64,000 bases of DNA from Candidatus Woesebacteria bacterium (GTDB taxonomy: Bacteria; Patescibacteriota; Microgenomatia; UBA8517), in the NCBI GenBank assembly GCA_016700095.1, contig CP065002.1:1060145-1124144 (forward strand). The letters run 5' to 3'. Below, piece after piece: positions 16,441 to 44,401 of this stretch; positions within the stretch are counted from its first letter, which is position 1, and each line of letters opens with the position of its first letter. The translations under genes were made by a program, and so were the position numbers. Under the pieces are notes generated by a model. The model did not search any database. It worked only from the letters and a program-made list of their open reading frames with translations, and had not been told where the DNA came from.

Positions 16441-16812
16441 TGCCCGGTCGTCTCAGTGAAACTCAGTGAGTATTCTCACGCAAGTGGTAGGACATGTCAT
16501 GCAAGGCATGACCTAAAGCATATTTTGAAGTATAATCTGGTTGGTGATTTAGTTAATCCTCCATTGCCCGGTCGTCTCAGTGAAACTCAGTGAGTATTCT
16601 CACGCAAGTGGTAGGACATGTCATGCAAGGCATGACCTAAAGCATATTTTGAAGTATAATCTGGTTGGTGATTTAGTTAATCCTCCATTGCCCGGTCGTC
16701 TCAGTGAAACTCAGTGAGTATTCTCACGCAAGTGGTAGGACATGTCATGCAAGGCATGACCTAAAGCATATTTTGAAGTATAATCTGGTTGGTGATTTAG
16801 TTAATCCTCCAT
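16441..16812 (+). repeat. Three exact tandem 124-bp units, each carrying a sigma70-like promoter (TGACCT-16nt-TATAAT) and the first 14 nt of tRNA-Gln with a 32-nt insert in place of nucleotides 15-17
   Basis: The sequence tgcccggtcgtct recurs at 16441, 16565, 16689 and 16813 with an exact 124-bp period. Each unit contains ggtaggacatg, which is tRNA-Gln nucleotides 18-28, and then diverges into a gtcatgc-aagg-gcatgac hairpin. Confidence 0.9.
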
Positions 16813-16883
16813 TGCCCGGTCGTCTAATGGTAGGACATGCGGCTCTGAACCGTATAATCGAGGTTCGAATCCTTGCCGGGCAG
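16813..16883 (+). tRNA. tRNA-Gln (anticodon CTG)
   Basis: TGCCCGGTCGTCTAATGGTAGGACATGCGGCTCTGAACCGTATAATCGAGGTTCGAATCCTTGCCGGGCAG. U1-A72 pair and G73 discriminator as expected for bacterial tRNA-Gln. All stems pair. Confidence 0.85.
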
Positions 16884-16926
16884 CTAAGACGGGCACCCCT
16901 AGGTGACCGTATTCTCTATTTAGCTT

Positions 16927-16951
16927 GAAGGGGCTTGCTAAAAGCCCCTTC
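16927..16951 (+). terminator. Stem-loop downstream of tRNA-Gln (gaaggggctt-gctaa-aagccccttc)
   Basis: 10-bp stem with no U tract, so it may be a processing or termination element. Confidence 0.35.
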
Positions 16952-17083
16952 AAGACGGGAAACATTCGGACCGGCAAAATACTCTTAAAATTCCAATATC
17001 AAGGCTGGATTCATATATGTCCTACTTAACCCAGAGAATAAGGATTCTAACCCCTCATTTTGCTATAATCCTTATATAACTAT

Positions 17084-17647
17084 ATGCGTCTCAGAAATGT
17101 ACTATTGATCCTCTTAATTGTAATTCCTTCTTTATTTTCTTTTTCCCCTCGCACTGCTTTTGCCTCTTGTGCTCCTCCTACATCACTTGCTGAATACAAA
17201 GAACAGGCAGATATAGTTGTGTTAGGCCGTGTAGCAAGCATTTCTGATACTTCAGCTATAGTTAATGTGGAACTATATTTTAAAGGTCATGGTGGACCTT
17301 CTCAGATTCAGGTAAGCGGACAAGAATCTCAAGGAGCAGTAACATCTGTTGATTTTTCGTTTGAGGAAGATAAAAAGTATCTCCTTTTTCTTAAGATGGA
17401 CTCCGGTAATCTTAAAACAAATGCCTGTATGGGAAATAAAGAAGTATCCGATGCACTTACTTCTGAAGATTTAGCTGTTTTAGGTACGGGATATTCACCG
17501 AGTGGGAACACTCAGGACTTATCATCCTCCGAAGGTAGTGAAAGACAGCCTTCAAATCCTAATATAAATTTTATGTTAGTAACTGGTGGTCTTTTAATTC
17601 TTGGAGTTGTTGCTGTTTCCTGGAAAAAGTTGCAAAAGAAGCGATAG
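17084..17647 (+). CDS. Secreted protein with a C-terminal membrane anchor (hypothetical)
   Basis: Signal peptide at the N-terminus. Hydrophobic C-terminal segment followed by KKLQKKR. Confidence 0.5.
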   Translation: MRLRNVLLILLIVIPSLFSFSPRTAFASCAPPTSLAEYKEQADIVVLGRVASISDTSAIVNVELYFKGHGGPSQIQVSGQESQGAVTSVDFSFEEDKKYLLFLKMDSGNLKTNACMGNKEVSDALTSEDLAVLGTGYSPSGNTQDLSSSEGSERQPSNPNINFMLVTGGLLILGVVAVSWKKLQKKR

Positions 17648-17655: not shown

Positions 17656-18993
17656 TTAAATTAACGGTACTGAGGTAACAGTTTCGTTGTGGATATAGAG
17701 TTGCCGATTTAATATATTCGTTACTTCTCGTTTTTCCAGCATCGTTCCATTTCTGAAAATGTAGTTCGCATAATCCATAAAGTGAACAGGCTTGTTTTCA
17801 GGGTTAATGTCTTGCGCCCACAAAATCTCATCTCGCATTTTCTTGTAAGATTCCATACTTTCTTTTATAAATAACTTAAAAGTAAATATCTGCGGATGCG
17901 CCATATACATGAAGTTTAGGTATCGTAATATTTGCTTTACTAGCTTTTCCTCTGTGAGATATGGTTCCGGGCAACCATACTTTTTCTGCCTCGTACAGTG
18001 ATAGTAAATGTGATAGCGTGGTTCTCCATATTTTCGCTTTCTGTATCTATCTTCACCAATAACCAGTGAACCGCAACTCGCACATTTGAACAGTTCTTTG
18101 AAGGTAAAGGTTTTGCTACCCCATTTTGCTTTCTTTGGAGCTACAAGCTGTTTTTGTACTTGATCAAATAGCTCTTTGCTAATTAGTGGTTTATGTGACC
18201 CTTTGTACCAATTACCACTTCCGATAGGATACTCAAATTCTCCATAATAGAACGGGTTTTTAAGCATCAAGTAAATTTGACTGAGTGTTACTTTCTTTCC
18301 TGCTCTGGTTGTTAAACAAGAATCGAGCCACTTCTTGAGAGTTCTTCCGCTATCACCATTTTTCGCAACCCTTTCAAACATTTCTGTCACAAATGGTGCT
18401 CTTTCAGGATCAGGAATAATATCTTTTATGCCAGCCATGGCTCTATTGAAATAACCGATTGGCGGCATTCCCGGTCTCCATCCCATGTTACATTTCGCTC
18501 TGATACCTCTTTTTACATTTATTCCTTTCTGGTCATTCTCAAGTTTGGCTTGAGAGCAAAGGATCATAAGTAAAAACTTATCACTTGGGCTGTTTGAGAA
18601 TGCTTGCGTGAATGTTTTAATGTGGATGAGTTTTCCGCCATCCATCATATCTACAAGCATTCCTAAATCTCCTGCATTCCTTGATAATCTATCTGGAGCC
18701 CATGTTAAAATCCCTGTGAACATTCCATTACGAAGATCATTGAGGAGCTGATTAAAGACTGGTCGCTGCCCCGAAAGTTTGGCTGAATGACTTTCTTTGC
18801 GAATCTCTTTGATAAATAGTCCTTCTTTTATCGCCATGTCATTCATTTCTTTGATTTGAGAGTCAATTGACATGGCTTGCCGTTCATCATCCTCAGTTGA
18901 TTTTCGGGCATAGAGACAATATTCAACGGTCTGTACTTGCGGTAGAACTGCTTGCTGTAACAAGTTATTCTGGTAGTTCATATCAGGGAACAA
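17656..18993 (-). CDS. Large serine recombinase (resolvase/invertase N-domain, recombinase domain and zinc ribbon)
   Basis: YCLYARKSTEDDERQAMSIDSQ carries the catalytic Ser motif. A recombinase domain follows, then a Cys cluster CASCGS...CTRQKKYGC. Confidence 0.9.
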   Translation of the reverse strand: MFPDMNYQNNLLQQAVLPQVQTVEYCLYARKSTEDDERQAMSIDSQIKEMNDMAIKEGLFIKEIRKESHSAKLSGQRPVFNQLLNDLRNGMFTGILTWAPDRLSRNAGDLGMLVDMMDGGKLIHIKTFTQAFSNSPSDKFLLMILCSQAKLENDQKGINVKRGIRAKCNMGWRPGMPPIGYFNRAMAGIKDIIPDPERAPFVTEMFERVAKNGDSGRTLKKWLDSCLTTRAGKKVTLSQIYLMLKNPFYYGEFEYPIGSGNWYKGSHKPLISKELFDQVQKQLVAPKKAKWGSKTFTFKELFKCASCGSLVIGEDRYRKRKYGEPRYHIYYHCTRQKKYGCPEPYLTEEKLVKQILRYLNFMYMAHPQIFTFKLFIKESMESYKKMRDEILWAQDINPENKPVHFMDYANYIFRNGTMLEKREVTNILNRQLYIHNETVTSVPLI

Positions 18994-19050: not shown

Positions 19051-21270
19051 TTATACAGTTATAAGGTCTTTTTCTGACCTCTTCAATAGAACTGCATTTG
19101 TTGCAACGATAATTGAAGAGACACTCATCAAGAGTGCTGAAATTTCGGGTCTTAGTGAAATATTAAATGCAGGGTATAGAACACCTGCAGCAACAGGTAT
19201 AGCTAAGACGTTATAAATTGATGCCCAAAAGAGATTTTGTTTCATTTTCCTTACCGTTGCTTTTGAAAGCCTAATCGCCCTGATAACATCAGCCGGATCT
19301 GACTTCATAAGAACGACCCTTGCAGTTTCTATTGCAACATCAGTCCCCGCACCAATAGCGATTCCTATATCTGCTTGAGCAAGTGCTGGGGCATCATTCA
19401 CGCCATCTCCAACCATTGCGACAAATTTTCCTTCTTTTTGTAATTTCTTAACATAAGAAGCTTTATCCTCTGGCATTACATCCGCAAACACTCGCTTTAT
19501 TCCAAGTTTTTTCGCTACTGCAAGAGCTGTGGTTTCATTATCTCCTGTAATCATAGCTGTTTCGATACCTAGCTCATTCATCCGATCAACTGCTTTTTTG
19601 GCATTTTCTTTAATAGGGTCAGCTGCACCAACAACGGCTTTTACTTGTCCGTTCACGGCAAGAACCATGATTGTTTGTCCACTTTTTAAAAATGACTGTA
19701 TTTTAGTATCAAGTGGTGTAACATCAACATTATTTTCTCTCATGAGCTTTACCGTACCCACTAATACCTTTTTTCCTTCAATGACTGCCCGTACTCCTAA
19801 ACCTGAAAGATTCTCAAATTTTTCAATTCTGGTTGGAAGCTTAATCTTTTTACTCTTCATTTCTTCAAGAACTGCATTTGCAAGTGGATGGCTCGACTTT
19901 GCTTCTGCAGCTCCAATAAGTTGCAAAGCCTCTTTATCACTGAAGCCCTTAACACTACTCATGCTTGTAATTTTAGGCTTACCCTCTGTTAACGTTCCCG
20001 TTTTATCAAGCACGACGGCTTGAATTTTTGATACCTGCTCAAGAGTGGGAGCATCTTTAATAAGAATGTTGTGCTTTGCTCCAAGTCCTGTCCCAACTGC
20101 AACAGCAGTAGGTGTTGCAAGTCCTAATGCATCAGGACAGGCGATTACGACAGCAGATATTGCAAAAGTAAGTGCAAAGAGTAAAGGCTGTCCTGCTATA
20201 AAATACCAGACGGCAAAAGTAAGTAGACCGCTTCCTACGGCAAGAATTACCAAATAACCAGCGAATTTATCGGCGATTTTTTGTCCAGGAGCTTTGGAGT
20301 TCTGTGCTGTTTCAACCATTTTTGCTATTTGTGAAAGAGCAGTATCTTCTCCTACTTTTGTTGCTTTGAACTGAACTGACCCTGATTGATTGATAGATCC
20401 CCCAATAACCTGATCTCCACTACTTTTAGCAACAGGTATAGATTCTCCTGTAACGAGGGATTCATCAATTGCCGTTTCACCTTCAATAATTTCACCATCA
20501 ACAGGCACTTTATCACCAGGTTTTAATACTAATATATCTCCGATTTTTACCTCAGAAGTTGAAACCAACTCCTCTTTTCCATTTCTAAGGAGTCTTGCCT
20601 GGGGTGGAACTAAATTAAACAAAGCTTGGAGAGCGTCTGTCGTACCACGACGTGATTTCATCTCCATCCAATGTCCAAAGAGGACGAATGTAATAAGCAT
20701 TGCTGCTGCTTCATAGAATGTTTCATGACTCCCAAGCAGGGTGAGTATCACACTGAAACCATACGCTGCTGTTATACCCACCGCGATAAGCACAGACATT
20801 CCTAGCCGTCGGGTTTTCAATTCATAGTAAGAAGAATACAAGAATAACCAGCCACCATAAAAGAAAACCGGTGTTGTTAGCAAAAAGAGAAGCCAGGGAA
20901 TGGGAATTGGTGAGGGTAGGTTCCAATTAAACAGCATTCTACCCATTGAATATGCAAGGATAGGGATCGTTAAAATGAACGAGAAAAAGAACTTATTTCG
21001 TATATCCTCTTCCATGAGCTTTGCCATCTCACGTCCTGCTTTTCCTGTGTGATCCATACCCATTGTCATAGTCATGCTCATCTTTATTTTTTCCCAAAAG
21101 GACATATCATCAATGGGTTTCATTGTGTGCTCATGACTCATATGGCTTTCATGCATTCCATGTTTATCATTCTTTACTTCAACAAGTGCCATACCACATT
21201 TAGGACAAACACCAGGTTTGTCTTTTCTGACTTCAGGATGCATTGGACAGGAATATGTTTTGTTACTCAT
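19051..21270 (-). CDS. Heavy-metal (copper-type) P1B ATPase with an N-terminal CPxHPE...CPxCGM metal-binding domain, a His/Met-rich stretch and an atypical CPD transmembrane motif
   Basis: CPMHPEVRKDKPGVCPKCGM; HGMHESHMSHEHTM...MSMTMTMGMDH; DKTGTLT phosphorylation site; GDGVNDAPAL hinge. TM6 reads IACPDALGLATP, i.e. CPD where CPC or CPH is usual. Confidence 0.9.
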   Translation of the reverse strand: MSNKTYSCPMHPEVRKDKPGVCPKCGMALVEVKNDKHGMHESHMSHEHTMKPIDDMSFWEKIKMSMTMTMGMDHTGKAGREMAKLMEEDIRNKFFFSFILTIPILAYSMGRMLFNWNLPSPIPIPWLLFLLTTPVFFYGGWLFLYSSYYELKTRRLGMSVLIAVGITAAYGFSVILTLLGSHETFYEAAAMLITFVLFGHWMEMKSRRGTTDALQALFNLVPPQARLLRNGKEELVSTSEVKIGDILVLKPGDKVPVDGEIIEGETAIDESLVTGESIPVAKSSGDQVIGGSINQSGSVQFKATKVGEDTALSQIAKMVETAQNSKAPGQKIADKFAGYLVILAVGSGLLTFAVWYFIAGQPLLFALTFAISAVVIACPDALGLATPTAVAVGTGLGAKHNILIKDAPTLEQVSKIQAVVLDKTGTLTEGKPKITSMSSVKGFSDKEALQLIGAAEAKSSHPLANAVLEEMKSKKIKLPTRIEKFENLSGLGVRAVIEGKKVLVGTVKLMRENNVDVTPLDTKIQSFLKSGQTIMVLAVNGQVKAVVGAADPIKENAKKAVDRMNELGIETAMITGDNETTALAVAKKLGIKRVFADVMPEDKASYVKKLQKEGKFVAMVGDGVNDAPALAQADIGIAIGAGTDVAIETARVVLMKSDPADVIRAIRLSKATVRKMKQNLFWASIYNVLAIPVAAGVLYPAFNISLRPEISALLMSVSSIIVATNAVLLKRSEKDLITV

Positions 21271-21297: not shown

Positions 21298-21318
21298 TGT
21301 ACTACTTATTGTAGTACA
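21298..21318. promoter_or_regulatory. Palindromic operator TGTACTAC-TTATT-GTAGTACA (TACTAC-N5-GTAGTA) 28 nt upstream of the ATPase start
   Basis: Perfect 8-bp inverted repeat. The same core is found at 26201, 27629 and 34774. Confidence 0.55.
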
Positions 21319-21321: not shown

Positions 21322-21816
21322 TCAAAAGGATTTTTTGAGAGCGTTTTCGTATTTATATGGATTAGAGATTCCTGTCAGGGTAACTTCACCTTGATACCCT
21401 CCTGAAGCACTTGTTTTTAATATAACATCTCCGTAGTTAAAAATCTTTCCTAATAAAGACTGGTGTGTTGTAATAGATCTAATGTTTTCGAAATGAAATA
21501 CATCTTCTTCTGTGCTAAGTATTCCAGTTCTTTGTATTAAATGCTTATCTGTAAGAAAATAGGTATTATTGGCCCACTGCAAAATCACATAAGTAATGAG
21601 AAAAATTTCTAATATGATCTTTCCTATTTGTGTGATAAAGAGCATTACTGAAATGTGGTGATGGAAATCAAAAGGAATACCAAAGCCTAAATTAAGGAGA
21701 TAAAATATAAGGCTGTAAAGAGAGTCTATAATAAACAGTATAAGTGCAAGTTTTAGAGTTAAAACAAAAATGCTTCCTCTTATTGGTTCGACATTATGTT
21801 CGTGTTCCCTCGTCAT
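21322..21816 (-). CDS. Membrane protein with a bacterial PH (bPH_2/YdbS-like) domain
   Basis: Two TM helices, then LTDKHLIQRTGILSTEEDVFHFENIRSI...GDVILKT, resembling the DUF304/bPH_2 family. Confidence 0.5.
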   Translation of the reverse strand: MTREHEHNVEPIRGSIFVLTLKLALILFIIDSLYSLIFYLLNLGFGIPFDFHHHISVMLFITQIGKIILEIFLITYVILQWANNTYFLTDKHLIQRTGILSTEEDVFHFENIRSITTHQSLLGKIFNYGDVILKTSASGGYQGEVTLTGISNPYKYENALKKSF

Positions 21817-22039: not shown

Positions 22040-23671
22040 TTAGATTACTTCAAACTGTGACATCATTCCCGCTTCCATATGCTCAGGTATATGACAGTGA
22101 AGCACCCAGTCACCCGGATTATCCATCTCGACAAGTAGCTCTACAGTATCACCAGTTTGGATAAGAACTGTGTCTTTCCAGACTAAATTTTGATTAGGTA
22201 CACCATTGGTATTAAGTACTAAGAAACGTTGTCCATGAACATGAATAGGGTGCTGCATTGGATGTGGTGCTTTTGGATCATTGATAAGTTTGAGTTTTAT
22301 TTTGTCACCTTTTTTAAACTGCCATTTTATATCCATATTCTCCTGCCTAGTTTCTGTATCAACAAGTTTCCAGTTAATCATTTTTGTATCAGACATCACA
22401 TTCATCTGACCCATATCATCTTCCCACTCAATCTTCTGAACCGTCCCGTCATTTAATGGCATTTCTTCATTACTCATCATTGATCCACCATGCATATTAT
22501 GCATACCTTCATTATTTTCATTTTGCTGCATCATATTCCCCATCATTGATAACGTCATATTGAGTGTTTTATCTGCAGGCTTTGTAAAGAGTGGTCGAAG
22601 GGCTGTAAGAGAGTTGATAAAATCTTGATTTACTCTTGGAACAAGAAGATAAGATGTGGTAACTGGAGTAGTAGCAACAGCTACTGTGCCCAGTGTATAC
22701 GTCTTTTCAGGTGTTTTATTAACTATCTGGAAATCTCCTGACTGTTCAAACCAGATTTCAACTATTGAGCGCTCAGATGGTCCTATTACAACTGTGTCCA
22801 CCCATTCTTCTTTTTCATATTTCCCGTTATCTGCACCTACTAATCTCATTCGAGTGTTTGGAATTGAAAAGTTAAATACTCTGGTATTGGCAGCATTCGT
22901 AAGATATAAGCGGACTCGTTCACCTTGTTTTATAGATAGTTTGTACTTGTCATCACCATTAATAAGCATGGTATTTCCATATCTTCCCATCAGGGTGTGA
23001 TTTGCTCCTGATTTACTAAAAGAGGCTATTTTGCCATTTTGAATGAGAATATCATCAAGAAACAGTGCTTCTTCCCGATCAACCTCTGCCCAATAATCTG
23101 ACTGATTTGGTGTCACAACATAATTACCATATAACCCCAGCTCTTGAGCATAGTCTTCTCGAAGATGTGGATGATACCAATATATTCCTTCATCAGGAAA
23201 CTTTATTTTATAAGTAAATGATTCACCGACTTTAATTGCTTCTTGGGTAACGTCCACTACGCCATCAAATTGATTATCAAGCCTTACTCCGTGTGAGTGG
23301 AGTGCTGTATCAACATCAGTGTCATTTTTAAAATTGAGAGTAATTTCTGAGCCTTGGTCTACTTTAATTAAAGGACCAGGAATTGAGCCATTATACGCAA
23401 GCATTTTGACTTCAGTGCCATTAATATTTTTTTTGACTATGCTTGCTGTCAAATCATAGGTATCACCATTTTTTAGCTCAACAACTCTTGATGCTTTTGC
23501 TTCAGGATAATTATTTACCTCTTTTGAATATTCTCCTGTCTTACTCGAACTTTCTCTTTGCTTCTGAGTATTTGAATACAAGTATATTCCTGCCCCCACA
23601 AGCACAATCCCAATAATAATCGCGGCTAGAACTTTTTGCATATTATTCATAACGAATTTCAATATTATCAC
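22040..23671 (-). CDS. Multicopper oxidase (CueO/PcoA-like) with a Met-rich insert
   Basis: Copper-ligand motifs WYHPHL and HCHIPEHMEAGMM. Met/His-rich segment MTLSMMGNMMQQNENNEGMHNMHGGSMM. Confidence 0.9.
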   Translation of the reverse strand: MIILKFVMNNMQKVLAAIIIGIVLVGAGIYLYSNTQKQRESSSKTGEYSKEVNNYPEAKASRVVELKNGDTYDLTASIVKKNINGTEVKMLAYNGSIPGPLIKVDQGSEITLNFKNDTDVDTALHSHGVRLDNQFDGVVDVTQEAIKVGESFTYKIKFPDEGIYWYHPHLREDYAQELGLYGNYVVTPNQSDYWAEVDREEALFLDDILIQNGKIASFSKSGANHTLMGRYGNTMLINGDDKYKLSIKQGERVRLYLTNAANTRVFNFSIPNTRMRLVGADNGKYEKEEWVDTVVIGPSERSIVEIWFEQSGDFQIVNKTPEKTYTLGTVAVATTPVTTSYLLVPRVNQDFINSLTALRPLFTKPADKTLNMTLSMMGNMMQQNENNEGMHNMHGGSMMSNEEMPLNDGTVQKIEWEDDMGQMNVMSDTKMINWKLVDTETRQENMDIKWQFKKGDKIKLKLINDPKAPHPMQHPIHVHGQRFLVLNTNGVPNQNLVWKDTVLIQTGDTVELLVEMDNPGDWVLHCHIPEHMEAGMMSQFEVI

Positions 23672-24152: not shown

Positions 24153-24339
24153 GTTTTTTAATTATAGAAATAATCTTATCTATTGAAATTTTCTCTGGAT
24201 CAAAGGTAACCTCAGTTTGCTGCTTTGCATAGTTTGTTTTTGCTTCTTTAACCCCTTCAGTATCCTCAAGCTCACCATCTATATTCATAGCGCAGCTTGT
24301 ACAATGCATACCAAATATATTTAGTTTTACTTTTTGCAT
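24106..24339 (-). CDS. copZ: Copper chaperone, heavy-metal-associated domain
   Basis: GMHCTSCA is the MxCxxC motif of the HMA domain. The protein is 77 aa. Confidence 0.85.
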   Translation of the reverse strand: MQKVKLNIFGMHCTSCAMNIDGELEDTEGVKEAKTNYAKQQTEVTFDPEKISIDKIISIIKKLDDSYDAEISKDYDN

Positions 24340-27643: not shown

Positions 27644-27661
27644 AGGTTAGATTAATAATCA

Positions 27662-35498: not shown

Positions 35499-35594
35499 TT
35501 TATCTACACCTCCTCTCCTTATAGGTTAAATCCTAAGTTACCGCTAATTATAGAGGAAATCAAGCACTAAATCTACTAATAGTGCGTTGTACTA

Positions 35595-35849: not shown

Positions 35850-35876
35850 TTAAAACATTATCCTTCAAATGTTTAT

Positions 35877-37828: not shown

Positions 37829-38573
37829 CTTTTATCCTTTCTGCTTTAATTCCAGAAACTTTTTCAAAGCGATCAATAATTACTTGGCAGTACTCCGGAT
37901 CTATCTCAACCATGAGGCATTTCCGTTTCGTTTGTTCGCAAGAAATAAGTGTTGATCCTGATCCGCCGAACGGATCATAGACATAGTCATTAACTTTTGA
38001 ACTGTTAAGGATTAAGTTTCGCAATAACCCAACAGGTTTCATGGTTGGATGAAGAGGACTTTTATTTGGTTTTGGATAAATGAGAATACTTTTGTCTTTT
38101 GCCTTATAGAATTCATGGCTTCCAAACCATCCGTATGCGATCAGCTCATGTTGTGGTAAATAGTGAAGCCGTCCGACGACAACATTGTTTTTGATCCAAA
38201 CAAGTAGTTGTGTAAGTCGAAAACCCGCATCAACAATGCCATCTCGCAAGGAGAACACCATTTTGTCTGAGTTAAAAATGTAAAAAGAATTTTTCTTGGC
38301 AAGATATGGCTTTATTGCTTCTAGCCATTCCTTCGTAAAATGGCGATACGTTCCTTCTGTTTGGTTGTGATCGTTGGCTATCTTTTTATTACTCTTAATT
38401 TCCGTAAGTTCAGCTTTTCCTTCAACATAAGCCACGCCGTAGGGCGGATCCGTCAGAAGGAGAGAGATTCGATCATCTAAAATAAGCCTCTTTAACAACG
38501 CTGAGTCTTTTGCATCTCCACACGCCAAGCGATGATCACCGAGTTGTAGAACATCACCTATTTTTATTTGCAT
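37818..38573 (-). CDS. DNA methyltransferase, N6-adenine/N4-cytosine class (DPPY)
   Basis: Motif IV LLLTDPPYGVAY and motif I VYDPFGGSGSTLISC. Confidence 0.85.
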   Translation of the reverse strand: MQIKIGDVLQLGDHRLACGDAKDSALLKRLILDDRISLLLTDPPYGVAYVEGKAELTEIKSNKKIANDHNQTEGTYRHFTKEWLEAIKPYLAKKNSFYIFNSDKMVFSLRDGIVDAGFRLTQLLVWIKNNVVVGRLHYLPQHELIAYGWFGSHEFYKAKDKSILIYPKPNKSPLHPTMKPVGLLRNLILNSSKVNDYVYDPFGGSGSTLISCEQTKRKCLMVEIDPEYCQVIIDRFEKVSGIKAERIKDGK

Positions 38574-39856
38574 AGCTTTGCCTCCTGTCCAGTCAACTTC
38601 TCGAAGCGCTTGATAATAAGGTCACAAAAAATAGGCTCAATTTCGCAAAGATATGCTCTGCGTTTGAGTTGTTCACACGCAATGAGAGTAGATCCGGAGC
38701 CACCGAATACATCAAGCACGATGTCTCCAGCTTTCGTGCAACGACGTAATGCTTTTTCATGGAGTGTTGGTGGTTTTTCTGTCGGATGTTCGTATTCTTG
38801 TGCAGGAAGACGTTTTGCTAGCCATATATTAAAAAGGTCAAGGATATCATCTGTCAGTCGATTTCCTGTTCCTACCTCTTTATTGAGAACCTCATTCAGG
38901 TTTTTGACTGATTCGGAAAGATACGGATTACCTTGAATACCATAAACGCATGGTTCATACACTTTATTAAATGCAGTTTGTGGAGTGACGTTCTGGTTAT
39001 TCTTAATCCAAAGACAAACTCGTTTGTTTATAATCCCAAGTTCCTTGTATATTCCCTGGATTAGTCCAATGTAATTTTCATCACACCAATAAAACACGTG
39101 TGCATCAGGAAAAGCAGTTGATAGCCCATTTTCAAGCGTTTTCTTGAGAAACGCTTTATATTCTTCTTCAGATTTCTTGTCATTCGTTTTCCCGCCATAT
39201 TTTCCATTTGTTCCAATCCCGTTGCTGTAATCGAGCGAGATATTATATGGGGGATCGCAGTAGAGCATGGATATCTTGTCATCCTGTACTAGCTTTTTGA
39301 GTACTTCGGGATCTGTCGCGTCTCCACAAATAAGTCGGTGCGATCCAAGCTGGTATATATCTCCCCATTTGCTTTTTGGTTCTTTGATCTTTTCAATTTC
39401 TTTTTTAACATCAAAGTCGTCATTTTCGACTCCCAAGTTATCATCCCAAATGTGTGAAAGATCGCTATCATCAAATCCAACATCAAGTAACAGCTCGACA
39501 TTAAATGATTTCAGAAGTTCAAAATCCCATTCTCCAGTATTGCGGTTAAGACGTAGATTCAACTCCTTTTCCTTCTGAAGATTGGGGATATTAACATAAA
39601 CTACAGGTACTTTTTCTATACCTAGTCTTTTTCCTACTTCGAGTCTGAAATGTCCACCAATTACAATATTTTTTCGATTAGATGCACCATTCGCAATAAT
39701 GGGATCTATCAATCCGAAGCGCTTAATACTCTCCGTTAATTGCTTGGCAGCTTCCTCATCCCATTTTCTTGGATTGTATTCAGCGGGGCGAAGTTCTTGA
39801 GCTGAAACATAAACGATAGAATATGGGTTCTCTTGTTTAGTATGTGCGTTCAACAT
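38564..39856 (-). CDS. ParB-like nuclease N-domain fused to a DNA methyltransferase (DPPY class)
   Basis: N-terminal ParB/Srx-like region (ELRPAEYNPRKWDEEAAKQLTESIKRFGLIDPIIAN). Then MLYCDPPYNISLDY and VLDVFGGSGSTLIACE. Confidence 0.85.
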   Translation of the reverse strand: MLNAHTKQENPYSIVYVSAQELRPAEYNPRKWDEEAAKQLTESIKRFGLIDPIIANGASNRKNIVIGGHFRLEVGKRLGIEKVPVVYVNIPNLQKEKELNLRLNRNTGEWDFELLKSFNVELLLDVGFDDSDLSHIWDDNLGVENDDFDVKKEIEKIKEPKSKWGDIYQLGSHRLICGDATDPEVLKKLVQDDKISMLYCDPPYNISLDYSNGIGTNGKYGGKTNDKKSEEEYKAFLKKTLENGLSTAFPDAHVFYWCDENYIGLIQGIYKELGIINKRVCLWIKNNQNVTPQTAFNKVYEPCVYGIQGNPYLSESVKNLNEVLNKEVGTGNRLTDDILDLFNIWLAKRLPAQEYEHPTEKPPTLHEKALRRCTKAGDIVLDVFGGSGSTLIACEQLKRRAYLCEIEPIFCDLIIKRFEKLTGQEAKLCK

Positions 39857-39906
39857 ACTATCAATAATAGGATGAAAAAGGGCTTGTGTATAAACAACAA
39901 TTGTGA

Positions 39907-40650
39907 CTAATTGATGTTGAGGCGTTTCTTGTAGCGGTTGATAGCTATATTTATTTCGTTGTAATCAAGTGAGTCACCAAATTCTTGCTGTATGATATCC
40001 CCAATATCCTTTTCCGACTTTCCTTCTTGTTCAAGCTCATAAATTCTTTGATCTCGGTCAAAGTTCTTAATAGGCTGGAACTTATCAGCCTTCCTATACA
40101 TTAAATCTTTCTGCATTCGCTTCACCCACGGCCAAATATGCCTGATGTCATTGAGGGTCGTATCGCCATCAATTTCAAGCGAAAGTCTTTTCATACCGTT
40201 TTCCCATGTCGTAACCATAGTTACTCCTGCGGTCAAGTTCAGATTATCGGGATCATTAAATAAAAGGTAGCGACGAATACCAGTGTGCCAACGTGGAGAA
40301 AGGCGATATTTTCTGACGACACCCCATACATCCTCACGAAATGCATGCATTGGAGCTTTAGCGTTACACTCTTTTCTTTTATCCTCAGCTTCTAGGAACT
40401 TTTTCTCTTTATTTAAGCTATCAATCTCTGCTCGACACTTCGGCCATTCTGTTTTGTAATACTCGTCAGTTGCAATATCAAGCTTATGATTCCATTCTAA
40501 ATTGTCATCCTCATTCTTTATTCCTTCGGAAGGAATATTCCATTTTTTCCTGAGGTCAGCAATTTCTTTCTGAAATGCAGGTCTGCTGACAAGCACTTTT
40601 ATTTCCTGTTTCAGTCGCTTCGTTTTTTCAGCAAAATAGTCTTTTTTCAT
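39907..40650 (-). CDS. Hypothetical protein (247 aa), divergent from the helicase gene
   Basis: ORF only. Charged and coiled-coil-like. Confidence 0.4.
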   Translation of the reverse strand: MKKDYFAEKTKRLKQEIKVLVSRPAFQKEIADLRKKWNIPSEGIKNEDDNLEWNHKLDIATDEYYKTEWPKCRAEIDSLNKEKKFLEAEDKRKECNAKAPMHAFREDVWGVVRKYRLSPRWHTGIRRYLLFNDPDNLNLTAGVTMVTTWENGMKRLSLEIDGDTTLNDIRHIWPWVKRMQKDLMYRKADKFQPIKNFDRDQRIYELEQEGKSEKDIGDIIQQEFGDSLDYNEINIAINRYKKRLNIN

Positions 40651-40723
40651 AGCCCATAATTCTAGCTTTATACATTCGTATTGTATATAATTCAGCTAAT
40701 AAAAGGAACAGCTTCAAATCACC

Positions 40724-43700
40724 GTGAATAATGATCAATTTATAATCAACACAAAAGTATTAGGTAATCCTATTAGGCAGGTTAATAAATCTGCTACATT
40801 TTCCGGCGATAAACCTAGAGCGTTAACACTTAGTAATAGAAGAATTGCTACATTCCCCAGATCTTGCGAAAAAGTAATTAAATCCTGGGATAAGCAATTC
40901 TCTTTCGTCGAAGAAAAACGAGAAAATGATCAAATTCTTGAAGAAGGATTGCGTCCGCCCCAAATCGGTGCACTCCATGCCGCACTCGCTCATTGGAAAG
41001 TAACAAACGCATCAGCCACCATTGTTATGCCTACTGGTACAGGAAAAACGGAAACAATGCTTGCACTTATGGTTTGCGAGCGAATAGATAAAATCCTAGT
41101 AGTTGTACCAACAGATGCGCTAAGAGATCAGATCACGAATAAGTTCCTAGGTCTCGGATTATTAAGAAAAATTGGAGCTGTTGGAAGGAAAGCAGAAAAT
41201 CCTATCGTGGGGACCCTCGAGCATCGACTCAAAACAGTAGATGAGGTAAATAAATTTTTTGGGTCATGCAATGTGGTGATAACGACAATGGCAATAGTAG
41301 GTGGATGCTCAGAAGAAATTCAAAAGGCAATGGCTGGAACAGCTACGTACCTTTTTATAGATGAGGCACATCATATTTCAGCACCAACTTGGCAAAAATT
41401 CAGAAAATTCTTCAAAGAAAAAACCATATTACAATTTACCGCCACACCTTTTAGAGGAGATGGAAGACATATTGATGGAAAGGTAATTTTTAATTATCCA
41501 TTACGAAAAGCGCAAAGCGAAGGGTATTTCAAGCAAATCAGTTTTATTGGTGTAAGAGATTATAATAAACAACGTGCCGATGAGACTATTGCCAAAAGAG
41601 CAATCAAAAAGCTGGAAGAAGACCTTGCACAAAATCTAGACCATATTATCTTGGCGCGAGCAGATAGTATAACTCGTGCGCGAGATATATTTGCTATTTA
41701 CCAACAACACGGCGCAAATCATAATCCTCAACTTTTTCATAGTAAGAAAAAAGTGGCTGAAAAACGCCAATCTCTTAATGAAATAAATGAAAGAAAATCA
41801 AGAATTATTGTATGTGTTGACATGTTTGGAGAAGGTTTTGACTTACCTGAATTAAAAATTGCAGCACTCCATGATGTGCATAAAGGTCTTGCCATTACAT
41901 TGCAGTTTACAGGAAGATTTACAAGAACAAAACCAAATATTGGTTCCGCAACGATTGTTGCAAATATCGCCAACCCTGGTGTTGAAGAAGCGTTAAAAGA
42001 CTTATATGCAGAAGATGCTGATTGGGATAAATTACTACGGAACTTAAGTGAAGGAGCGACTACCAAACAGGAAAAGCTATCTCAGTTTTTTGAAGGATTT
42101 GTGGATTTGCCTCCAGAATTCTTACCTCAAAATATTTTGCCTAAAATGAGCACTGTTGTTTATAAAACAAATAATACGCGGTGGACTCCCGAAAACATAC
42201 CAAAAGTAGTAAAAGAATCTAGGCTTTTTATTGACCCTACTGTAAATCAAGGAGAAAAAGTCGTGTTCTTTGTTACCTGCGAGAAAGAACCAATTTCTTG
42301 GGGCAATTTTAAGGATATCCATAATACGATTTGGGATCTGTATTTGATTCATTGGGATGAAGCTCAAAAATTATTATTTATCAATAGCTCAAACAACAGG
42401 TCCTTCCATGGGGAATTAGCAAAAGCTATTTGTGGCGATGATGTTGAAATAGTTCGTGGAGAACAAGTGTTTCGTACTCTCTCTGGGATCAATAGATTAA
42501 GCCTTATGAATCTTGGCTTAACACATTCCTTAAATCGAGCAATGCGATTCACAATGTATGTTGGATCAGACATACTATCAGCAATCTCGGACGCTCAGCA
42601 ACAAAATAGGATTAAATCCAATCTTTTTGGAAGAGGTTTTGAGAATGGTAGTAAAACAAGCATCGGGTCATCTTACAAAGGGAGGATTTGGTCTTATAAA
42701 ATAGCAGATGATATCTCGGAATGGATTGAATGGTGCCGAAAAACAGGCACAAAATTACTTGATGATACTTTTTCTGCAACAGATATTCTTAAATATGTAT
42801 TGCGCCCAACTTTAATAACACAACGGCCAAACCTCGTACCGCTAACAATAGAGTGGCCAGAAGACTTACTCTTGAAAAGCGAGGAAACTGTTGAACTAAA
42901 TATCGCGGGAGAGACGATTCCATTGTATGAAGCAGGTATTGAGTTAACGGACTTTAATAAAACAGGCCCAATAAAGTTCCAGGTTTTTAGTGAAAACAAA
43001 AGTGTTGAATATAAAATTGCATTTAATAATAACAATGTTGAGTATTTACCGACTGGGCAAGACACTGCACAAATTATAATTGCGAGAAAACCACAATCCC
43101 TTCCTGATTGGTTAAAAGAGAATTCTCCTATTGTTCGTTTTGAAAACGATTCATACCTACAATACAACGTTCTTTTTGAAAATCCTGCTGATCCGCCTGC
43201 ACCTTTTGATAAGGATAAGATTCAAATATGGGACTGGAATGGTATTGATTTGAGTAAAGAATCGCAGACAGTAAATAAAGATACTGACTCAATACAATAT
43301 CGAGTCATACAAGAGGCACTAAAGGATACCCACGATTCACAATATGATGTCGTTTTTGACGATGACGATTCCTATGAAGCTGCGGATGTAATAGGAATTA
43401 AAATGACAGAGGAGAAATTAATAGTTGATTTATACCATTGTAAGTTCTCCCAATCTGCCACTCCCGGAGCAAGAGTCGAAGATCTATATGCAGTTTGCGG
43501 TCAAGCACAAAAAAGTGTTCATTGGAGAGATGATATACAAAAACTTATCGATCACTTAACTTTACGTGAGGTGAGTCGACAAAAGAAAGGATTGGTTTCA
43601 AGATTTGAAAAAGGTGATTTAGAAAAACTCGAAGAAATAAGAAATAAAGTACCTTATCTTATTCCTGAATTTACAATCACAGTTGTTCAGCCAGGTTTAT

Positions 43701-43804
43701 CTAAAAACCAAGCAAGTAATAGTCAACTAGAACTACTCGCCGTTACAGAAAATTATCTTAAAGAAACACACGCAATAAACTTAGAAGTGATAGCCAGTCA
43801 ATAA
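40724..43804 (+). CDS. 1026-aa DEAH-box SF2 helicase with a large C-terminal extension containing a PD-(D/E)xK-like motif (Type III Res-like architecture)
   Basis: Q-like LRPPQIGALHA; motif I MPTGTGKT; motif II FIDEAHHI; motif III FTATPFR; motif V VCVDMFGEGFDLP; motif VI QFTGRFTR. The C-terminal region includes DVVFDDDDSYEAADVIGIKMTEEKLIVDLYHCKFS. Confidence 0.8.
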   Translation: MNNDQFIINTKVLGNPIRQVNKSATFSGDKPRALTLSNRRIATFPRSCEKVIKSWDKQFSFVEEKRENDQILEEGLRPPQIGALHAALAHWKVTNASATIVMPTGTGKTETMLALMVCERIDKILVVVPTDALRDQITNKFLGLGLLRKIGAVGRKAENPIVGTLEHRLKTVDEVNKFFGSCNVVITTMAIVGGCSEEIQKAMAGTATYLFIDEAHHISAPTWQKFRKFFKEKTILQFTATPFRGDGRHIDGKVIFNYPLRKAQSEGYFKQISFIGVRDYNKQRADETIAKRAIKKLEEDLAQNLDHIILARADSITRARDIFAIYQQHGANHNPQLFHSKKKVAEKRQSLNEINERKSRIIVCVDMFGEGFDLPELKIAALHDVHKGLAITLQFTGRFTRTKPNIGSATIVANIANPGVEEALKDLYAEDADWDKLLRNLSEGATTKQEKLSQFFEGFVDLPPEFLPQNILPKMSTVVYKTNNTRWTPENIPKVVKESRLFIDPTVNQGEKVVFFVTCEKEPISWGNFKDIHNTIWDLYLIHWDEAQKLLFINSSNNRSFHGELAKAICGDDVEIVRGEQVFRTLSGINRLSLMNLGLTHSLNRAMRFTMYVGSDILSAISDAQQQNRIKSNLFGRGFENGSKTSIGSSYKGRIWSYKIADDISEWIEWCRKTGTKLLDDTFSATDILKYVLRPTLITQRPNLVPLTIEWPEDLLLKSEETVELNIAGETIPLYEAGIELTDFNKTGPIKFQVFSENKSVEYKIAFNNNNVEYLPTGQDTAQIIIARKPQSLPDWLKENSPIVRFENDSYLQYNVLFENPADPPAPFDKDKIQIWDWNGIDLSKESQTVNKDTDSIQYRVIQEALKDTHDSQYDVVFDDDDSYEAADVIGIKMTEEKLIVDLYHCKFSQSATPGARVEDLYAVCGQAQKSVHWRDDIQKLIDHLTLREVSRQKKGLVSRFEKGDLEKLEEIRNKVPYLIPEFTITVVQPGLSKNQASNSQLELLAVTENYLKETHAINLEVIASQ

Positions 43805-43807
43805 ACT

Positions 43808-44401
43808 TCAGCTGATAAGTCTCAAAACAAACGGGACAATTCTTGTTGTCGGCAGTTTATATCGATACGCAATTTTGTAATACCACTTGAAACATATCTT
43901 CTTCATTTCTTCACATTGCTGATCAAAGACAAAGTCATCCTCTACGTCATTAAGAAGACTTCCTGCTGCTCGTTCTATTGCAATACTGAGTAGCGCATAT
44001 TCATTTTCATAATCAGGGTCGAAAAAGTCTCGTGATCTGTGCCTTTTTGATTCGGCAAGAGCAATCAGTTCGTCCTCGATGGCAAGATATAACCTAATTC
44101 CATCACTGCTTCTTACCTGCTTACTCAGTAGCGGCTTTTTATTCAATAGTATTGCTCTCCATAGAACTTCGTAGTCAAAATGTAGCGAATAAGAAAGCCT
44201 AGAAATTTCTGGAATAATTCTCTTATTGATATATCTCTTTCGTAATTCTCGTGGCGTTAGGTTATCATTAATTTTATATTTCGTTTTTACATGGCAAGTA
44301 ATAGCATAACAGGCATATGAATGAGTAAATAACATAAGCCTTGCCCTATTAAATGTTGTATATTTTCTTGCCCTTGCCATAATTAAAGGGCAGAAACACA
44401 A
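43808..44401 (-). CDS. Hypothetical protein (197 aa), convergent with the helicase gene and 4 bp from its stop
   Basis: ORF only. Confidence 0.4.
   Translation of the reverse strand: MCFCPLIMARARKYTTFNRARLMLFTHSYACYAITCHVKTKYKINDNLTPRELRKRYINKRIIPEISRLSYSLHFDYEVLWRAILLNKKPLLSKQVRSSDGIRLYLAIEDELIALAESKRHRSRDFFDPDYENEYALLSIAIERAAGSLLNDVEDDFVFDQQCEEMKKICFKWYYKIAYRYKLPTTRIVPFVLRLIS

Follow-up and report, generated by a model that had tools for sequence, protein, structure and literature searches.

Among described mobile elements, tycheposons, PICIs and PLEs come closest in concept to the locus considered here, and satellites can interfere with the packaging of their helper phages (PMC9618062). 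The window that we analysed, a stretch of 64,000 nucleotides from a 1,274,238-bp contig of Candidatus Woesebacteria, had earlier been read as carrying a phage-derived, recombinase-bounded island with copper-resistance genes beside tRNA-Gln, notable should the host be CPR-like. The host is a CPR bacterium and the genes listed (a large serine recombinase (LSR), copper genes, TerS and TerL, two methyltransferases and a helicase) are all present, the copper part spanning about 16 kb. Comparison with about 150 related loci places the ends of the island at 16885 and 44556 (27.7 kb), and we estimate a probability of about three in four that this segment represents an integrated mobile island from a conserved family associated with the CPR, which would integrate by its LSR, spread in the manner of a satellite and carry copper genes as cargo.

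The left end of the island coincides with the 3′ terminus of tRNA-Gln and the right end with an element-borne mimic of the same tRNA end, and the core CAGC is common to both junctions (attL and attR). The target, tRNA-Gln(CTG) (16813–16884, plus strand; ARAGORN; Rfam RF00005, 60 bits), is uninterrupted by the insertion. The attL crossover region (16881–16887) has its CAGC core at the tRNA discriminator and 3′ terminus, as placed by a nine-way junction alignment (A5) and by homology to locus L014, which ends at 16881. Beyond it lies a conserved non-coding arm, A (16885–17051, 167 nt, plus strand; AAGACGGGCACCCC..GTGACCGT), which is 87% identical to positions 11348–11518 of L014 and contains a G+C-rich hairpin (16924–16954) that could terminate the tRNA transcript; the motif of arm A is also found 3′ of tRNA-Gln in L025 and L047, despite different tRNA sequences. 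The opposite arm, B (44395–44556, plus strand), consists of two hairpins followed by a sequence (GGTTCTAGACCGAGCCTCTCAGC) that imitates the T-arm and the acceptor 3′ strand of tRNA-Gln, with the attR crossover at 44553–44557, where homology to L151 (44553) and L150 (44557) stops. In L014 the homologue of 17051–16881 is fused directly to the homologue of 44556–44458, and both there and in L016 the joining of B to A resembles an attP junction. Throughout the nine aligned junctions, true tRNA-Gln ends and B ends alike show the pattern GGTTC.A..CC-N8-CAGC without variation, and only attL and attP-type sequences have arm A on their right. The limits given in the preliminary description, 16441 and 44401, thus need correction, the first marking where a 124-nt tandem repeat begins, upstream of tRNA-Gln and outside the island, and the second falling short of the true end at 44553–44557. 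Likewise the LSR was said to follow tRNA-Gln immediately; it does lie downstream, but is separated from the tRNA by the 167-nt arm and by a gene for a secreted or membrane-anchored protein of 187 aa (17084–17647, plus strand; from its translation). This protein has no match in Pfam or PADLOC, and its gene is an insertion relative to L014, where it is missing between the LSR and arm A.

Homologues of the backbone are found in L151, with 78.7% nucleotide identity over 9.1 kb ending at 44553, and in L150, L013 and L018, all in unrelated chromosomal contexts and with homology breaking at the same nucleotides. At the level of sequence, these comparisons establish the insertion and its exact ends. 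An empty site is suggested by L095, where 180 nt separate tRNA-Gln from an rsgA of 85% identity and the island is absent, though since tRNA-Gln and rsgA are all that this locus has in common with the window it is suggestive rather than strict. The att junctions foreseen from such comparisons could be placed, and the element is absent from all 55 related rsgA loci. That the cluster is instead ancestral, inherited vertically and beside tRNA-Gln by chance, is scarcely credible and by now largely refuted. Its G+C content (0.377, against 0.369 and 0.349 in the flanks) resembles that of its surroundings, so that of the compositional shifts expected at its ends only a modest tetranucleotide one is seen (correlation to the flanks of 0.89–0.91 inside, 0.95–0.98 outside), and for want of a close relative a presence/absence polymorphism is not visible. 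Against this stand the identical end points of homologous backbones in unrelated contexts, the B|A junctions in other contigs, the absence of the island from L095, the genome with the most similar rsgA, and from the other rsgA loci, and the conservation of the LSR, with homologues up to 92% identical compared to 43% for the best homologue of the flanking DUF4153 gene. The earlier proposal that conserved gene order without an indel at tRNA-Gln would mark the region as ancestral has therefore turned out in favour of mobility.

To the right, everything past about 44.4 kb had been taken for unrelated genes. This holds for rsgA (46729–47811), but the 2.1 kb between 44.56 and 46.67 kb are what remains of an older insertion (44557–46665; direct repeat D10, alignments A2 and A5), so that host sequence resumes only at rsgA. 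Within the remnant are three small genes of unassigned function (44709–44984, 45051–45449 and 45450–46355), without family matches in Pfam, PHROG or PADLOC, and a second B-type end (46540–46665, ..GGTTTAGACCCGTATGTTCAGC).

The packaging operon of the island, on the minus strand, begins with a conserved 247-aa protein (39907–40650) that has 40 homologues (38–87% identical) and an AF2 model, all-helical plus a beta-hairpin (pLDDT 89), with no fold match in the PDB. There follow a ParB-N domain fused to an N6/N4 DNA methyltransferase (38564–39856) and a second N6/N4 DNA methyltransferase (37818–38573), both assigned by Pfam and PHROG, then TerS (37397–37828; PHROG TerS families, E down to 7e-9; HTH_Tnp_1_2), whose cluster spans 78 loci, and an intact TerL (35877–37400; phrog_38, E=2e-78), the translation of which has Walker A (GSGKST), Walker B (LVICDD) and nuclease Asp motifs. 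An Xre-type HTH regulator (35595–35849, plus strand; Pfam HTH_3) is oriented against TerL and belongs to a cluster of 22 loci with the same position, and a DUF4352 lipoprotein-like gene (34950–35498, minus strand; Pfam), a semi-conserved backbone gene after TerL, recurs at this position in L013, L017, L022, L036, L038 and L151. The LSR, the integrase of the element (17656–18993, minus strand; Resolvase, Recombinase and Zn_ribbon_recom domains), has a YARKST catalytic-serine motif in its translation and is nearest, among solved structures, to the SPbeta and TP901-1 integrases. Near the right end is a 1026-aa SF2 helicase (40724–43804, plus strand; ResIII and Helicase_C by Pfam), 89% identical in L151, which fills a slot used for defence genes in relatives. 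It had been called a helicase-nuclease, and the helicase core does match known families, but a nuclease domain was not confirmed by Pfam, PADLOC or PDB comparison: the C-terminal 600 aa are without family assignment, the PADLOC matches, to PbeA and type IV restriction enzymes, are weak, and the nearest PDB entry is 7clg. Beside the helicase is a conserved 197-aa protein (43808–44401, minus strand) with homologues in L018 (54%) and L151 (60%) and no family match in Pfam, PHROG or PADLOC. Values of dN/dS between 0.01 and 0.10 for TerL (0.035), TerS, both methyltransferases (0.01–0.03 for the ParB fusion), the 247-aa protein (0.06), the helicase and the LSR (0.05 against L013) clearly indicate strong purifying selection on the backbone genes.

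Neither Pfam nor PHROG identifies virion genes in the window, L016 or L080, while the same search finds portal, protease and major head protein genes beside a 37%-identical TerL on the phage contig L012. The capsid-less backbone of one or more methyltransferases, TerS, TerL, optional cargo and LSR, often with a convergent tRNA, is present in at least 52 metagenomic loci. Where at least 1.5 kb of sequence follows TerL (72 loci), the LSR lies downstream on the same strand in 52, with a gap below 200 nt in 26, and in about 20 loci a convergent tRNA is found 80–1200 nt beyond the LSR stop. LSRs at least 62% identical to that of the island are at tRNA-Gln, and more distant ones are mostly at Ser, Lys, Tyr or Glu tRNAs, with the exception of L074 (46%), which is at Gln. 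Both ends are defined in three elements: that of the window, L016 (about 15.7 kb) and L080 (about 13 kb, with 110-nt flanking direct repeats). One could suppose that the island is a grounded prophage, which lost its structural genes and had the gap filled by host copper genes, leaving the packaging genes as relics on an immobile island. Indeed TerL, TerS and the methyltransferases are of phage type, the nearest cultured relatives of TerL are Mu-like phages (24–29% identity), L012 shows a related TerL followed by portal and capsid genes, a decayed remnant adjoins at 44557–46665, and no excised circle was detected, there being no terminal overlaps in any of the contigs compared and no match to the attP pattern in IMG/VR. 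We consider this explanation improbable, however, as it would imply independent decay into one shared architecture, which is implausible given the same capsid-less order in so many loci, TerL directly abutting the LSR in 26, three delimited elements with neither room for nor trace of virion genes, and a backbone with dN/dS at or below 0.1 and intact catalytic motifs. The packaging and methylation genes are of phage type, but in place of phage-derived the island is better described as a member of a conserved capsid-less terminase and LSR family, not as a one-off decayed prophage.

The cargo of this family varies, and as judged by gene order and homology both the variation and the membership of the island are firmly established. 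L013 carries a MarR regulator and an ABC transporter, L018, L150 and L151 carry copper sets, and other loci hold restriction-modification, CBASS, OLD nuclease or LexA-like repressor genes, the last seen in 11 relatives and lacking in the element of the window. By position there are two cargo slots, one between TerL and the LSR and the other upstream of the 247-aa gene, and copper is one filling of the first. Copper and packaging genes are functionally unlinked and cargo differs among relatives, as would be expected if two unrelated neighbours lay here, a copper island that has a recombinase of its own and, apart from it, the remains of a phage with TerS/TerL, methyltransferases and helicase. 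This is very improbable: arms A and B enclose both parts with no att-like site between cargo and backbone, nothing intervenes between TerL and LSR in the 26 loci, and differing cargos occupy the same post-TerL slot in L013, L150 and L151, being closed, within the examined sequence of L013, by an 87%-identical LSR.

The copper module fills the slot between TerL and the LSR with some 16 kb of minus-strand genes. Nearest to TerL are a CsoR-family copper-sensing repressor with a C-H-C ligand pattern (34480–34752; Trns_repr_metal, E=3e-23; 73% identical in L018), a DUF7282-cupredoxin protein (33695–34483; Pfam; DUF7282 homologue in L018), a YNCE-like beta-propeller protein (32505–33662; Pfam) and a CopA-type P1B-1 copper ATPase with HMA domain and CPC motif (30224–32563; Pfam; TIGR01511, 598.9 bits). 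Three proteins with N-terminal membrane anchors, all from Pfam, come next, namely a BNR/sortilin-like protein (29322–30227), a beta-propeller protein (28593–29321) and an alpha/beta hydrolase (27662–28582), and then a BlaI/CopY-family repressor (27251–27628; Penicillinase_R, E=1e-26; best NCBIfam model CopY/TcrY, below cut-off) and a BlaR1-like M56/M48 membrane metalloprotease, a candidate sensor (26263–27276; Pfam; 55% identical in L018). These are followed by a DsbA-like thioredoxin-fold protein (25383–26183; Pfam Thioredoxin_4/DSBA), a DsbD_2 membrane thiol-disulfide transporter fused to a cupredoxin domain (24345–25379; Pfam), an architecture also found in the cargos of L150 and L151, a CopZ-like chaperone with an HMA domain and GMHCTSC in its translation (24106–24339; NCBIfam CopZ models below cut-off), a 169-aa membrane-anchored ORF product within the copper operon (23643–24152) with no family match in Pfam or NCBIfam, a multicopper oxidase with three Cu-oxidase domains (22040–23671), 57% identical to the one beside the LSR in L014, a membrane protein with a bacterial PH domain (bPH_2; 21322–21816; Pfam; homologue in the L018 copper cargo) and a CopB-like P1B copper ATPase with HMBD, a His/Met-rich N-terminus and CPD in TM6 (19051–21270; Pfam; TIGR01511, 597.8 bits). 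Both ATPases exceed the NCBIfam cut-off of 397 bits for TIGR01511; the BlaI-like protein, CsoR, CopZ and the multicopper oxidase match specific NCBIfam copper models below cut-off. A pattern search of the whole window for TACTACA-N3-TGTAGTA gave 4 matches, compared to 0.25 expected, all within the cargo: 30 nt upstream of the CopB-like gene (21300–21316, TACTACTTATTGTAGTA), 20 nt upstream of the DsbA-like gene (26203–26219, TACTACATATTGTAGTA), at the start of the BlaI/CopY repressor gene (27628–27644) and 22 nt upstream of csoR (34774–34790, TACTACATCATGTAGTA). This palindrome is likely the operator of a BlaI/CopY-type repressor with the BlaR1-like protease as its partner.

A scheme for the island can be drawn from these observations. 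Integration at the tRNA end was most likely mediated by an LSR, presumably the island's own, which would have joined attP (arm B, CAGC, arm A) to attB (the tRNA-Gln 3′ terminus, CAGC, downstream DNA). Since a copy-like mimic of both the T-arm and the acceptor end of the tRNA closes arm B, both partner sites would have the same left half-site, and integration would have left tRNA-Gln whole and placed arm A, with its terminator-like hairpin, behind it. The backbone comprises the 247-aa protein, both methyltransferases, TerS, TerL, the Xre regulator, DUF4352 and the LSR. With a terminase but no capsid, portal or tail genes, we infer a satellite-like spread, in which the island, if still mobile, would on induction have its DNA packaged by its own terminase into helper-phage capsids and protected by its methyltransferases in the new host. 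We identified neither a replication module nor an excisionase/RDF nor a helper phage. The cargo would provide copper resistance through the CopA-type and CopB-like efflux ATPases, multicopper oxidase, CopZ, DsbD-cupredoxin, DsbA-like and cupredoxin/propeller envelope proteins, encoded by no fewer than four units that each have a palindrome in front and are controlled by the BlaI/CopY repressor and BlaR1-like protease, with CsoR as a second sensor. Less probable, though deserving some weight, is that an integrative element moving by other means uses its terminase to hijack or poison phage packaging, or to package the chromosome in situ as in lateral transduction. The variable slots are rich in defence genes, the element has no recognised replication module, and interference with helper packaging has precedent among satellites (PMC9618062); moreover, with the LSR on the tRNA-facing side downstream of TerL, packaging that starts near terS and proceeds in one direction would pass the cargo and continue into host DNA. 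On the other side, no PADLOC model matches TerL or the 247-aa protein, and a complete TerS and TerL with conserved ATPase and nuclease motifs, linked to an integrase, are what self-packaging needs. As between self-packaging and another use of the terminase, the present data fit both alike.

Whichever use applies, a full copper-defence gene set here resides on a mobile island in a small-genome CPR bacterium. We found no published description of this island family. To our knowledge no satellite family has the same gene set, and it is in concept that the island stands nearest to the tycheposons, PICIs and PLEs.

The preliminary description had proposed a recombinase-bounded, phage-derived island with a copper-resistance regulon next to tRNA-Gln, and every feature it named (tRNA-Gln, a large serine recombinase, copper genes, terminase subunits, methyltransferases and a helicase) was found again. 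Comparison with related loci places the island at window positions 16885-44556 (27.7 kb), directly behind tRNA-Gln(CTG) (16813-16884). The large serine recombinase (LSR; 17656-18993, minus strand) has the resolvase, recombinase and zinc-ribbon domains that define its family (PF00239, PF07508 and PF13408, all above cut-off) and retains the YARKST motif with the catalytic serine (residues 28-33). The nearest solved structures are the SPbeta YokA/SprA and TP901-1 integrases, and the best NCBIfam models, CcrB and XisF, both score below cut-off. Homologues of the LSR are very numerous, the best being 87-92% identical, compared to 43% for the best match of a neighbouring host gene. This gene, at 14393-16126, encodes a DUF4153 flank protein; as 43% is its nearest homologue after the match to its own genome, the host is a CPR bacterium without a close sequenced relative, and a genome scan using the same protein found no relatives.

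The exact att junctions, for which the preliminary description had looked to related genomes, are defined by comparison with four related loci (L014, L016, L150 and L151) and by a nine-way alignment. In L014, positions 11348-11518 match window 17051-16881 at 87%, covering the conserved non-coding left end of the island (arm A, 16885-17051), and positions 11512-11620 match window 44556-44458, which belongs to the right end that mimics the 3′ part of tRNA-Gln (arm B, 44395-44556). Since the two matches run on without a break, both island ends are joined in L014, either as an attP site or as a tandem junction, and the same B-to-A junction is found in L016. L151 is collinear with window 35466-44553 (78.7% over 9.1 kb), its homology ending at 44553, that of L150 ends at 44557, and both continue into unrelated DNA. 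In the nine-way alignment an invariant left half-site, GGTTC.A..CC-N8-CAGC, is present in true tRNA-Gln 3′ ends (window, L025, L047 and the empty-site locus L095) as well as in element B ends (L014, L016, L151, and window 44529-44556 and 46637-46665). Arm A (AAGACGGGCACCCC..GTGACCGT followed by a hairpin) adjoins CAGC on the right only behind a tRNA, at occupied sites, or behind B, in attP-like sites, and the DNA following B at host junctions, or the tRNA at the empty site, is unrelated. Because arm A is conserved while the adjoining tRNA-Gln sequences vary from host to host, the border between element and host is the 3′ terminus of the tRNA, which is not rebuilt by the element.

Four site types with the common core CAGC were thereby recovered: attL (tRNA followed by A), attR (B followed by unrelated DNA), attP-like B-to-A junctions in L014 and L016, and an attB-like site in L095. 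On these comparative grounds, LSR-driven integration at the tRNA end appears well supported, and the sites are those that short attP by attB recombination across a small common core would produce, with hybrid attL and attR. No long repeat emerged from searching the window for a second copy of the tRNA-Gln 3′ end or from comparing the two island ends for direct repeats; the distal tRNA-end copy is so diverged that it was found only through homology with other elements. Two other candidates were set aside: a crossover at the T-loop, as GTTCGAAT and T-loop-like motifs are no more frequent than expected by chance, and a 26-nt inverted repeat (16154/46394) as the element termini, as the comparative junctions lie elsewhere. 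An Rfam search of arms A and B gave no RNA family. As for excised or circular forms, none of the fetched contigs has terminal overlaps, and the attP pattern has no match in IMG/VR.

A genome scan with an alignment of RsgA, which is encoded beyond the right end, returned 55 loci, none with the element near rsgA. The best of these, L095, is a Candidatus Levyibacteriota MAG with an 85% identical RsgA, where tRNA-Gln(CTG) and rsgA point the same way, the tRNA lying upstream at a distance of 180 nt; these genes are 29.8 kb apart in the window. The empty site suggested by the preliminary description is thus seen as a tRNA-Gln/rsgA pair without an island, though L095 has nothing else in common with the window and is therefore supporting rather than strict evidence. 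Between the two loci, rsgA (window 46712-47849; L095 9983-11121) is 87% identical in nucleotides and 85% in protein, the neighbouring tRNA-Gln genes are just 73% identical, and no other gene can be aligned in 21 kb. GC content in the window is lowest where this gene lies (0.31), and rsgA may itself have been exchanged between lineages; in another locus, L090, it adjoins a member of the island family. A second B-type end (46540-46665) lies between the island and rsgA, behind three small genes of unassigned family. We read 44557-46665 as the probable remnant of an earlier insertion displaced outward by the present island, a reading supported by the tandem arrangements in L014, L016 and L150.

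The large terminase subunit (TerL) was used as a query to find further relatives, giving 80 loci among metagenome contigs and 12 in IMG/VR. Downstream sequence of at least 1.5 kb is available for 72 TerL loci, and in 52 of these a same-strand LSR follows, at a distance of <200 nt in 26, 0.2-2 kb in 19 and >2 kb in 7. When all ORFs are clustered, only the methyltransferases, the small (TerS) and large terminase subunits, the LSR, a small HTH protein and a 247-aa protein (39907-40650, minus strand, in the window) are recurrent, and the remaining genes within 10 kb differ between loci. The backbone order of the window is found again in L013, which has an 87% identical LSR: ParB-methyltransferase, methyltransferase, TerS, TerL, HTH, DUF4352, cargo (here MarR and an ABC transporter) and LSR. 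Where both ends are defined, the elements measure 13 kb (L080), about 15.7 kb (L016) and 27.7 kb (window). Seven loci (L005, L048, L057, L058, L065, L070 and L076; about 8.4-11.5 kb) have two full-length tandem TerL genes ahead of the LSR, these copies being 48-54% identical to the TerL of the window.

In about 20 loci a convergent tRNA gene lies 80-1200 nt past the LSR stop codon, matching the layout of the window. LSRs at least 62% identical to that of the window are found at tRNA-Gln (L016, L025, L045, L047 and L064), while more distant ones are mostly at Ser, Lys, Tyr or Glu tRNAs, the exception being L074 (46%), at Gln; such a pattern would be expected of integrase clades that each have a target specificity of their own. 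The element of L080, which targets tRNA-Ser, is flanked by direct repeats of about 110 nt (11-122 and 13123-13190; 90-97% identical) that end 5 nt inside the tRNA, a far longer shared stretch than in the tRNA-Gln clade.

The TerL of the window matches phrog_38 (E=2e-78) and has the motifs of a Walker A/B ATPase and an RNase-H-like nuclease (GSGKST, LVICDD, GIDLA, IEEVG and HDDLADA). Pfam Terminase_6C matches it weakly (20.8 bits vs a cut-off of 22.6), and the closest TerLs of cultured phages, at 24-29% identity, are those of Mu-like phages. Further backbone or slot genes are a methyltransferase, a ParB-methyltransferase fusion and an SF2 helicase of ResIII type, the sole helicase of the element, whose place is taken by defence genes in relatives; it had been described as a helicase-nuclease, but Pfam, PADLOC and structure comparison gave no confirmation of a nuclease domain. 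Pfam and PHROG searches of all genes within 16885-44556 found no portal, capsid, protease or tail genes. As a positive control, in the phage contig L012 the PHROG search picks up genes for the major head protein, portal and head protease directly behind the TerL (37% identical).

The island is thus not an integrated prophage of the Caudoviricetes, in which virion genes would lie within the att-bounded element. The term "phage-derived" holds in so far as TerS, TerL and phage-type genes are present, which a decayed prophage might also have left behind, but decay is made improbable by the missing virion genes, by dN/dS of 0.01-0.10 in TerL, TerS, both methyltransferases, the 247-aa protein, the helicase and the LSR (with dS saturated), by the intact motifs of TerL and LSR, and by the same capsid-less form in relatives. 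From the missing virion genes, the element sizes, the selection and the kept motifs it follows that the capsid-less architecture is the conserved state of the family. A complete terminase under selection fits a satellite without any capsid genes: the terminase would package element DNA into the capsids of a helper phage, by which transfer would occur, and the methyltransferases would protect this DNA on arrival. No helper phage, replication module or excisionase was identified, and primase, Rep or DnaB-like genes had no match in the element. Alternatively, the same intact terminase may serve defence or lateral transduction instead of satellite packaging.

The cargo, lying between TerL and the LSR, consists of about 16 kb of copper genes on the minus strand. 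Both ATPases exceed TIGR01511 (cut-off 397). The first (30224-32563; 598.9 bits) is of the P1B-1 CopA type, with CPC in TM6 and an N-terminal HMA domain with CxxC (GMHCASC). The second (19051-21270; 597.8 bits) has an HMBD and is classed as CopB-like because of CPD and a His/Met-rich N-terminus, despite passing TIGR01511. This CPD stands where TM6 usually has CPC or CPH, and the metal specificity of the enzyme may be unlike that of canonical CopA or CopB. The cargo also encodes a CopZ-like chaperone and a multicopper oxidase, two cupredoxin-containing proteins (one a fusion with DsbD, the other with DUF7282), a DsbA-like protein, a hydrolase and propeller proteins. Regulation would fall to two proteins, CsoR and a repressor of the BlaI/CopY family whose partner is a BlaR1-like protease. 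The former (PF02583, 82 bits vs a cut-off of 22.8) has the CsoR fold and the Cys-His-Cys ligands equivalent to C36, H61 and C65 (YCIDV ... ENHLQKC), the NCBIfam RicR model falling below cut-off; the latter (PF03965, 93.7 bits) reaches 51.5 against the cut-off of 122 of the CopY/TcrY model and is without the C-terminal CxCxxxxCxC metal site of CopY. Four copies of the palindrome TACTACA-N3-TGTAGTA are present in the 64-kb window, where 0.25 would be expected. All lie within the cargo, one immediately ahead of each of csoR, the repressor gene and the genes for the CopB-like ATPase and the DsbA-like protein. As all four precede cargo genes, "regulon" is a fair word for what the ATPases, regulators and shared palindromes make up, with operators and resistance phenotype both being predictions.

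Three further loci, L018, L150 and L151, have copper cargo, and in L014 the LSR adjoins a multicopper oxidase of 57% identity. The cargo slot of this locus (1-9933, beside an 87% identical LSR) otherwise holds Oxidored_q/Proton_antipo (Nuo- or Mrp-like) membrane subunits, DUF4396, glycerol-3-phosphate dehydrogenase and an FGGY kinase, an unusual content for a CPR-associated element. Among the neighbours that recur elsewhere, a LexA-like S24 repressor is found in 11 loci; the others are restriction-modification enzymes of types I, ISP and IIG, a CBASS pair (SMODS and SAVED), an OLD-family nuclease and a large SF1 helicase. For instance, in L050, L053, L071 and L091-L093 the SMODS nucleotidyltransferase, SAVED effector and LexA-like S24 repressor are directly upstream of the packaging operon, which in the window is headed by the 247-aa protein.

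The flanks encode ordinary functions, with Lon, BacA, two TruB paralogues, a class-I aldolase and tRNA-Arg on the left, and RsgA, CYTH and HAD proteins and an SDR on the right. The two TruB-family pseudouridine synthase genes (9373-10845) stand back to back on opposite strands. Beyond rsgA, the region 50002-59027 contains an IS200-like Y1 transposase (50002-50667), a DUF3800 protein (55834-56589) and a Schlafen-group-3 helicase (57105-59027), and looks like more accessory or defence DNA. A perfect 124-nt tandem repeat (3.1 copies, 16441-16825) lies outside the island, upstream of tRNA-Gln and with its final part within it; the unit opens with the first 13-14 nt of the tRNA, separated by an insert of 31 nt from a second tRNA-derived segment (TGGTAGGACATG), and goes on to a hairpin and a promoter-like stretch (TTGAAG..TATAAT); it gave neither an Rfam family nor an unusual fold. 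The shift in GC content anticipated at the island borders is absent (0.377 in the island vs 0.369 and 0.349 in the flanks). That in tetranucleotides does exist but is modest, the correlation to the flank profile dropping to 0.89-0.91 at 17.5-40 kb vs 0.95-0.98 elsewhere. This composition fits exchange inside a pool of compositionally alike CPR genomes.

Genomes of CPR bacteria are tiny, few routes by which they exchange genes are recognised, and these ultra-small cells are not known to have conjugation machinery. We tentatively propose, with a probability of roughly one in three, that the window island belongs to a large, apparently undescribed satellite family specific to CPR/Patescibacteria, with elements of 10-28 kb that carry TerS, TerL, two methyltransferases and an LSR but no capsid genes, whose LSR clades radiated to different tRNA 3′ ends by means of tRNA-mimicking attP arms, and which would be a main vehicle for defence and niche genes such as copper resistance. 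The locus and its roughly 50 relatives define a recurrent vehicle of CPR gene flow whose ends are exactly placed, whose targets, tRNA 3′ termini, can be predicted and which has slots for cargo, so that such gene flow becomes directly testable by junction PCR, long reads and virome mapping. They also provide natural LSR/attP/attB sets with a readable site logic, of the kind that serves as genome-engineering tools, and the presence of copper defence on such an element suggests metal stress as a force that shapes CPR populations via mobile DNA. A survey reports many genomic islands in Patescibacteria, and its main text does not contain the words terminase, serine recombinase, integrase, tRNA or copper (PMC12455944). 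Our literature search, in a library that is itself incomplete, found no description of the island family, which by its kind belongs with tRNA-targeting integrative islands and satellites. Current satellite detection tools cover four families (PMC10085698), and a satellite that has a terminase and lacks a capsid would fall outside these four.

The copper genes resemble known operons in their BlaI-family repressor, putative TACA..TGTA-type operator, CopZ, CopA- and CopB-type ATPases and C-H-C CsoR. The reference copper systems are the CopY/CopZ/CopA/CopB operon of Enterococcus hirae and CsoR-CopZ-CopA of Bacillus and Mycobacterium. Unlike in these systems, the operator spacing is 3 nt rather than 2 and the repressor is paired with a BlaR1-like protease; DsbD-cupredoxin, DUF7282-cupredoxin, propellers and multicopper oxidase are additional, and the whole set is element-borne in a CPR bacterium.

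The recombinase architecture, and the integrase gene at the element end beside the att site, are shared with SPbeta, TP901-1, A118, phiC31 and SCCmec Ccr. Those elements, as far as is known, target protein-coding genes or orfX, whereas here a whole LSR clade sits at the extreme 3′ end of tRNA genes, and the LSR prophages among them also carry full virion modules. The family is like PICIs and SaPIs in its size (10-28 kb), site-specific integration, TerS, defence or adaptive cargo, lack of a full virion set, and a repressor beside a divergent operon (LexA-like in 11 relatives). Classical PICIs, though, are not known to carry TerL beside their TerS, and they have tyrosine integrases as well as a primase/replication module; cf-PICIs combine TerL with capsid, portal and head-tail genes. 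The window island, at 27.7 kb (13-16 kb in relatives), has an LSR at its end, both TerS and TerL, no replication module and no capsid, portal or other virion genes, and would share with PICIs the satellite logic but not the gene set. PLEs, which integrate into repeats of the single species Vibrio cholerae and to our knowledge have neither terminase genes nor tRNA-gene targets, share the LSR with the island family but not the target or the terminase. PLEs are satellites with a large serine recombinase as integrase, so that an LSR-driven satellite has a precedent (PMC6002521; PMC9618062).

The closest concept is that of the tycheposons of Prochlorococcus, which are defined by tyrosine recombinases of one clade and replication genes (primase/helicase), have specific tRNA targets matched by integrase clade, form tandem arrays and degenerate remnants with partial tRNA copies, from which an island is built up, and carry adaptive or defence cargo, some also having PICI-like packaging genes (terS) (bioRxiv 10.1101/2020.12.28.424599). 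The island family is alike in its streamlined host genomes, clade-matched tRNA integration, arrays, remnants and cargo, as seen at the tRNA-Gln 3′ end, in the second B-type end at 46540-46665, and in the tandem loci. Unlike tycheposons, it has a serine recombinase as its only recombinase, full TerS and TerL, two methyltransferases and no recognisable replication module, and where tycheposons duplicate part of a tRNA, its attP arm mimics the tRNA end.
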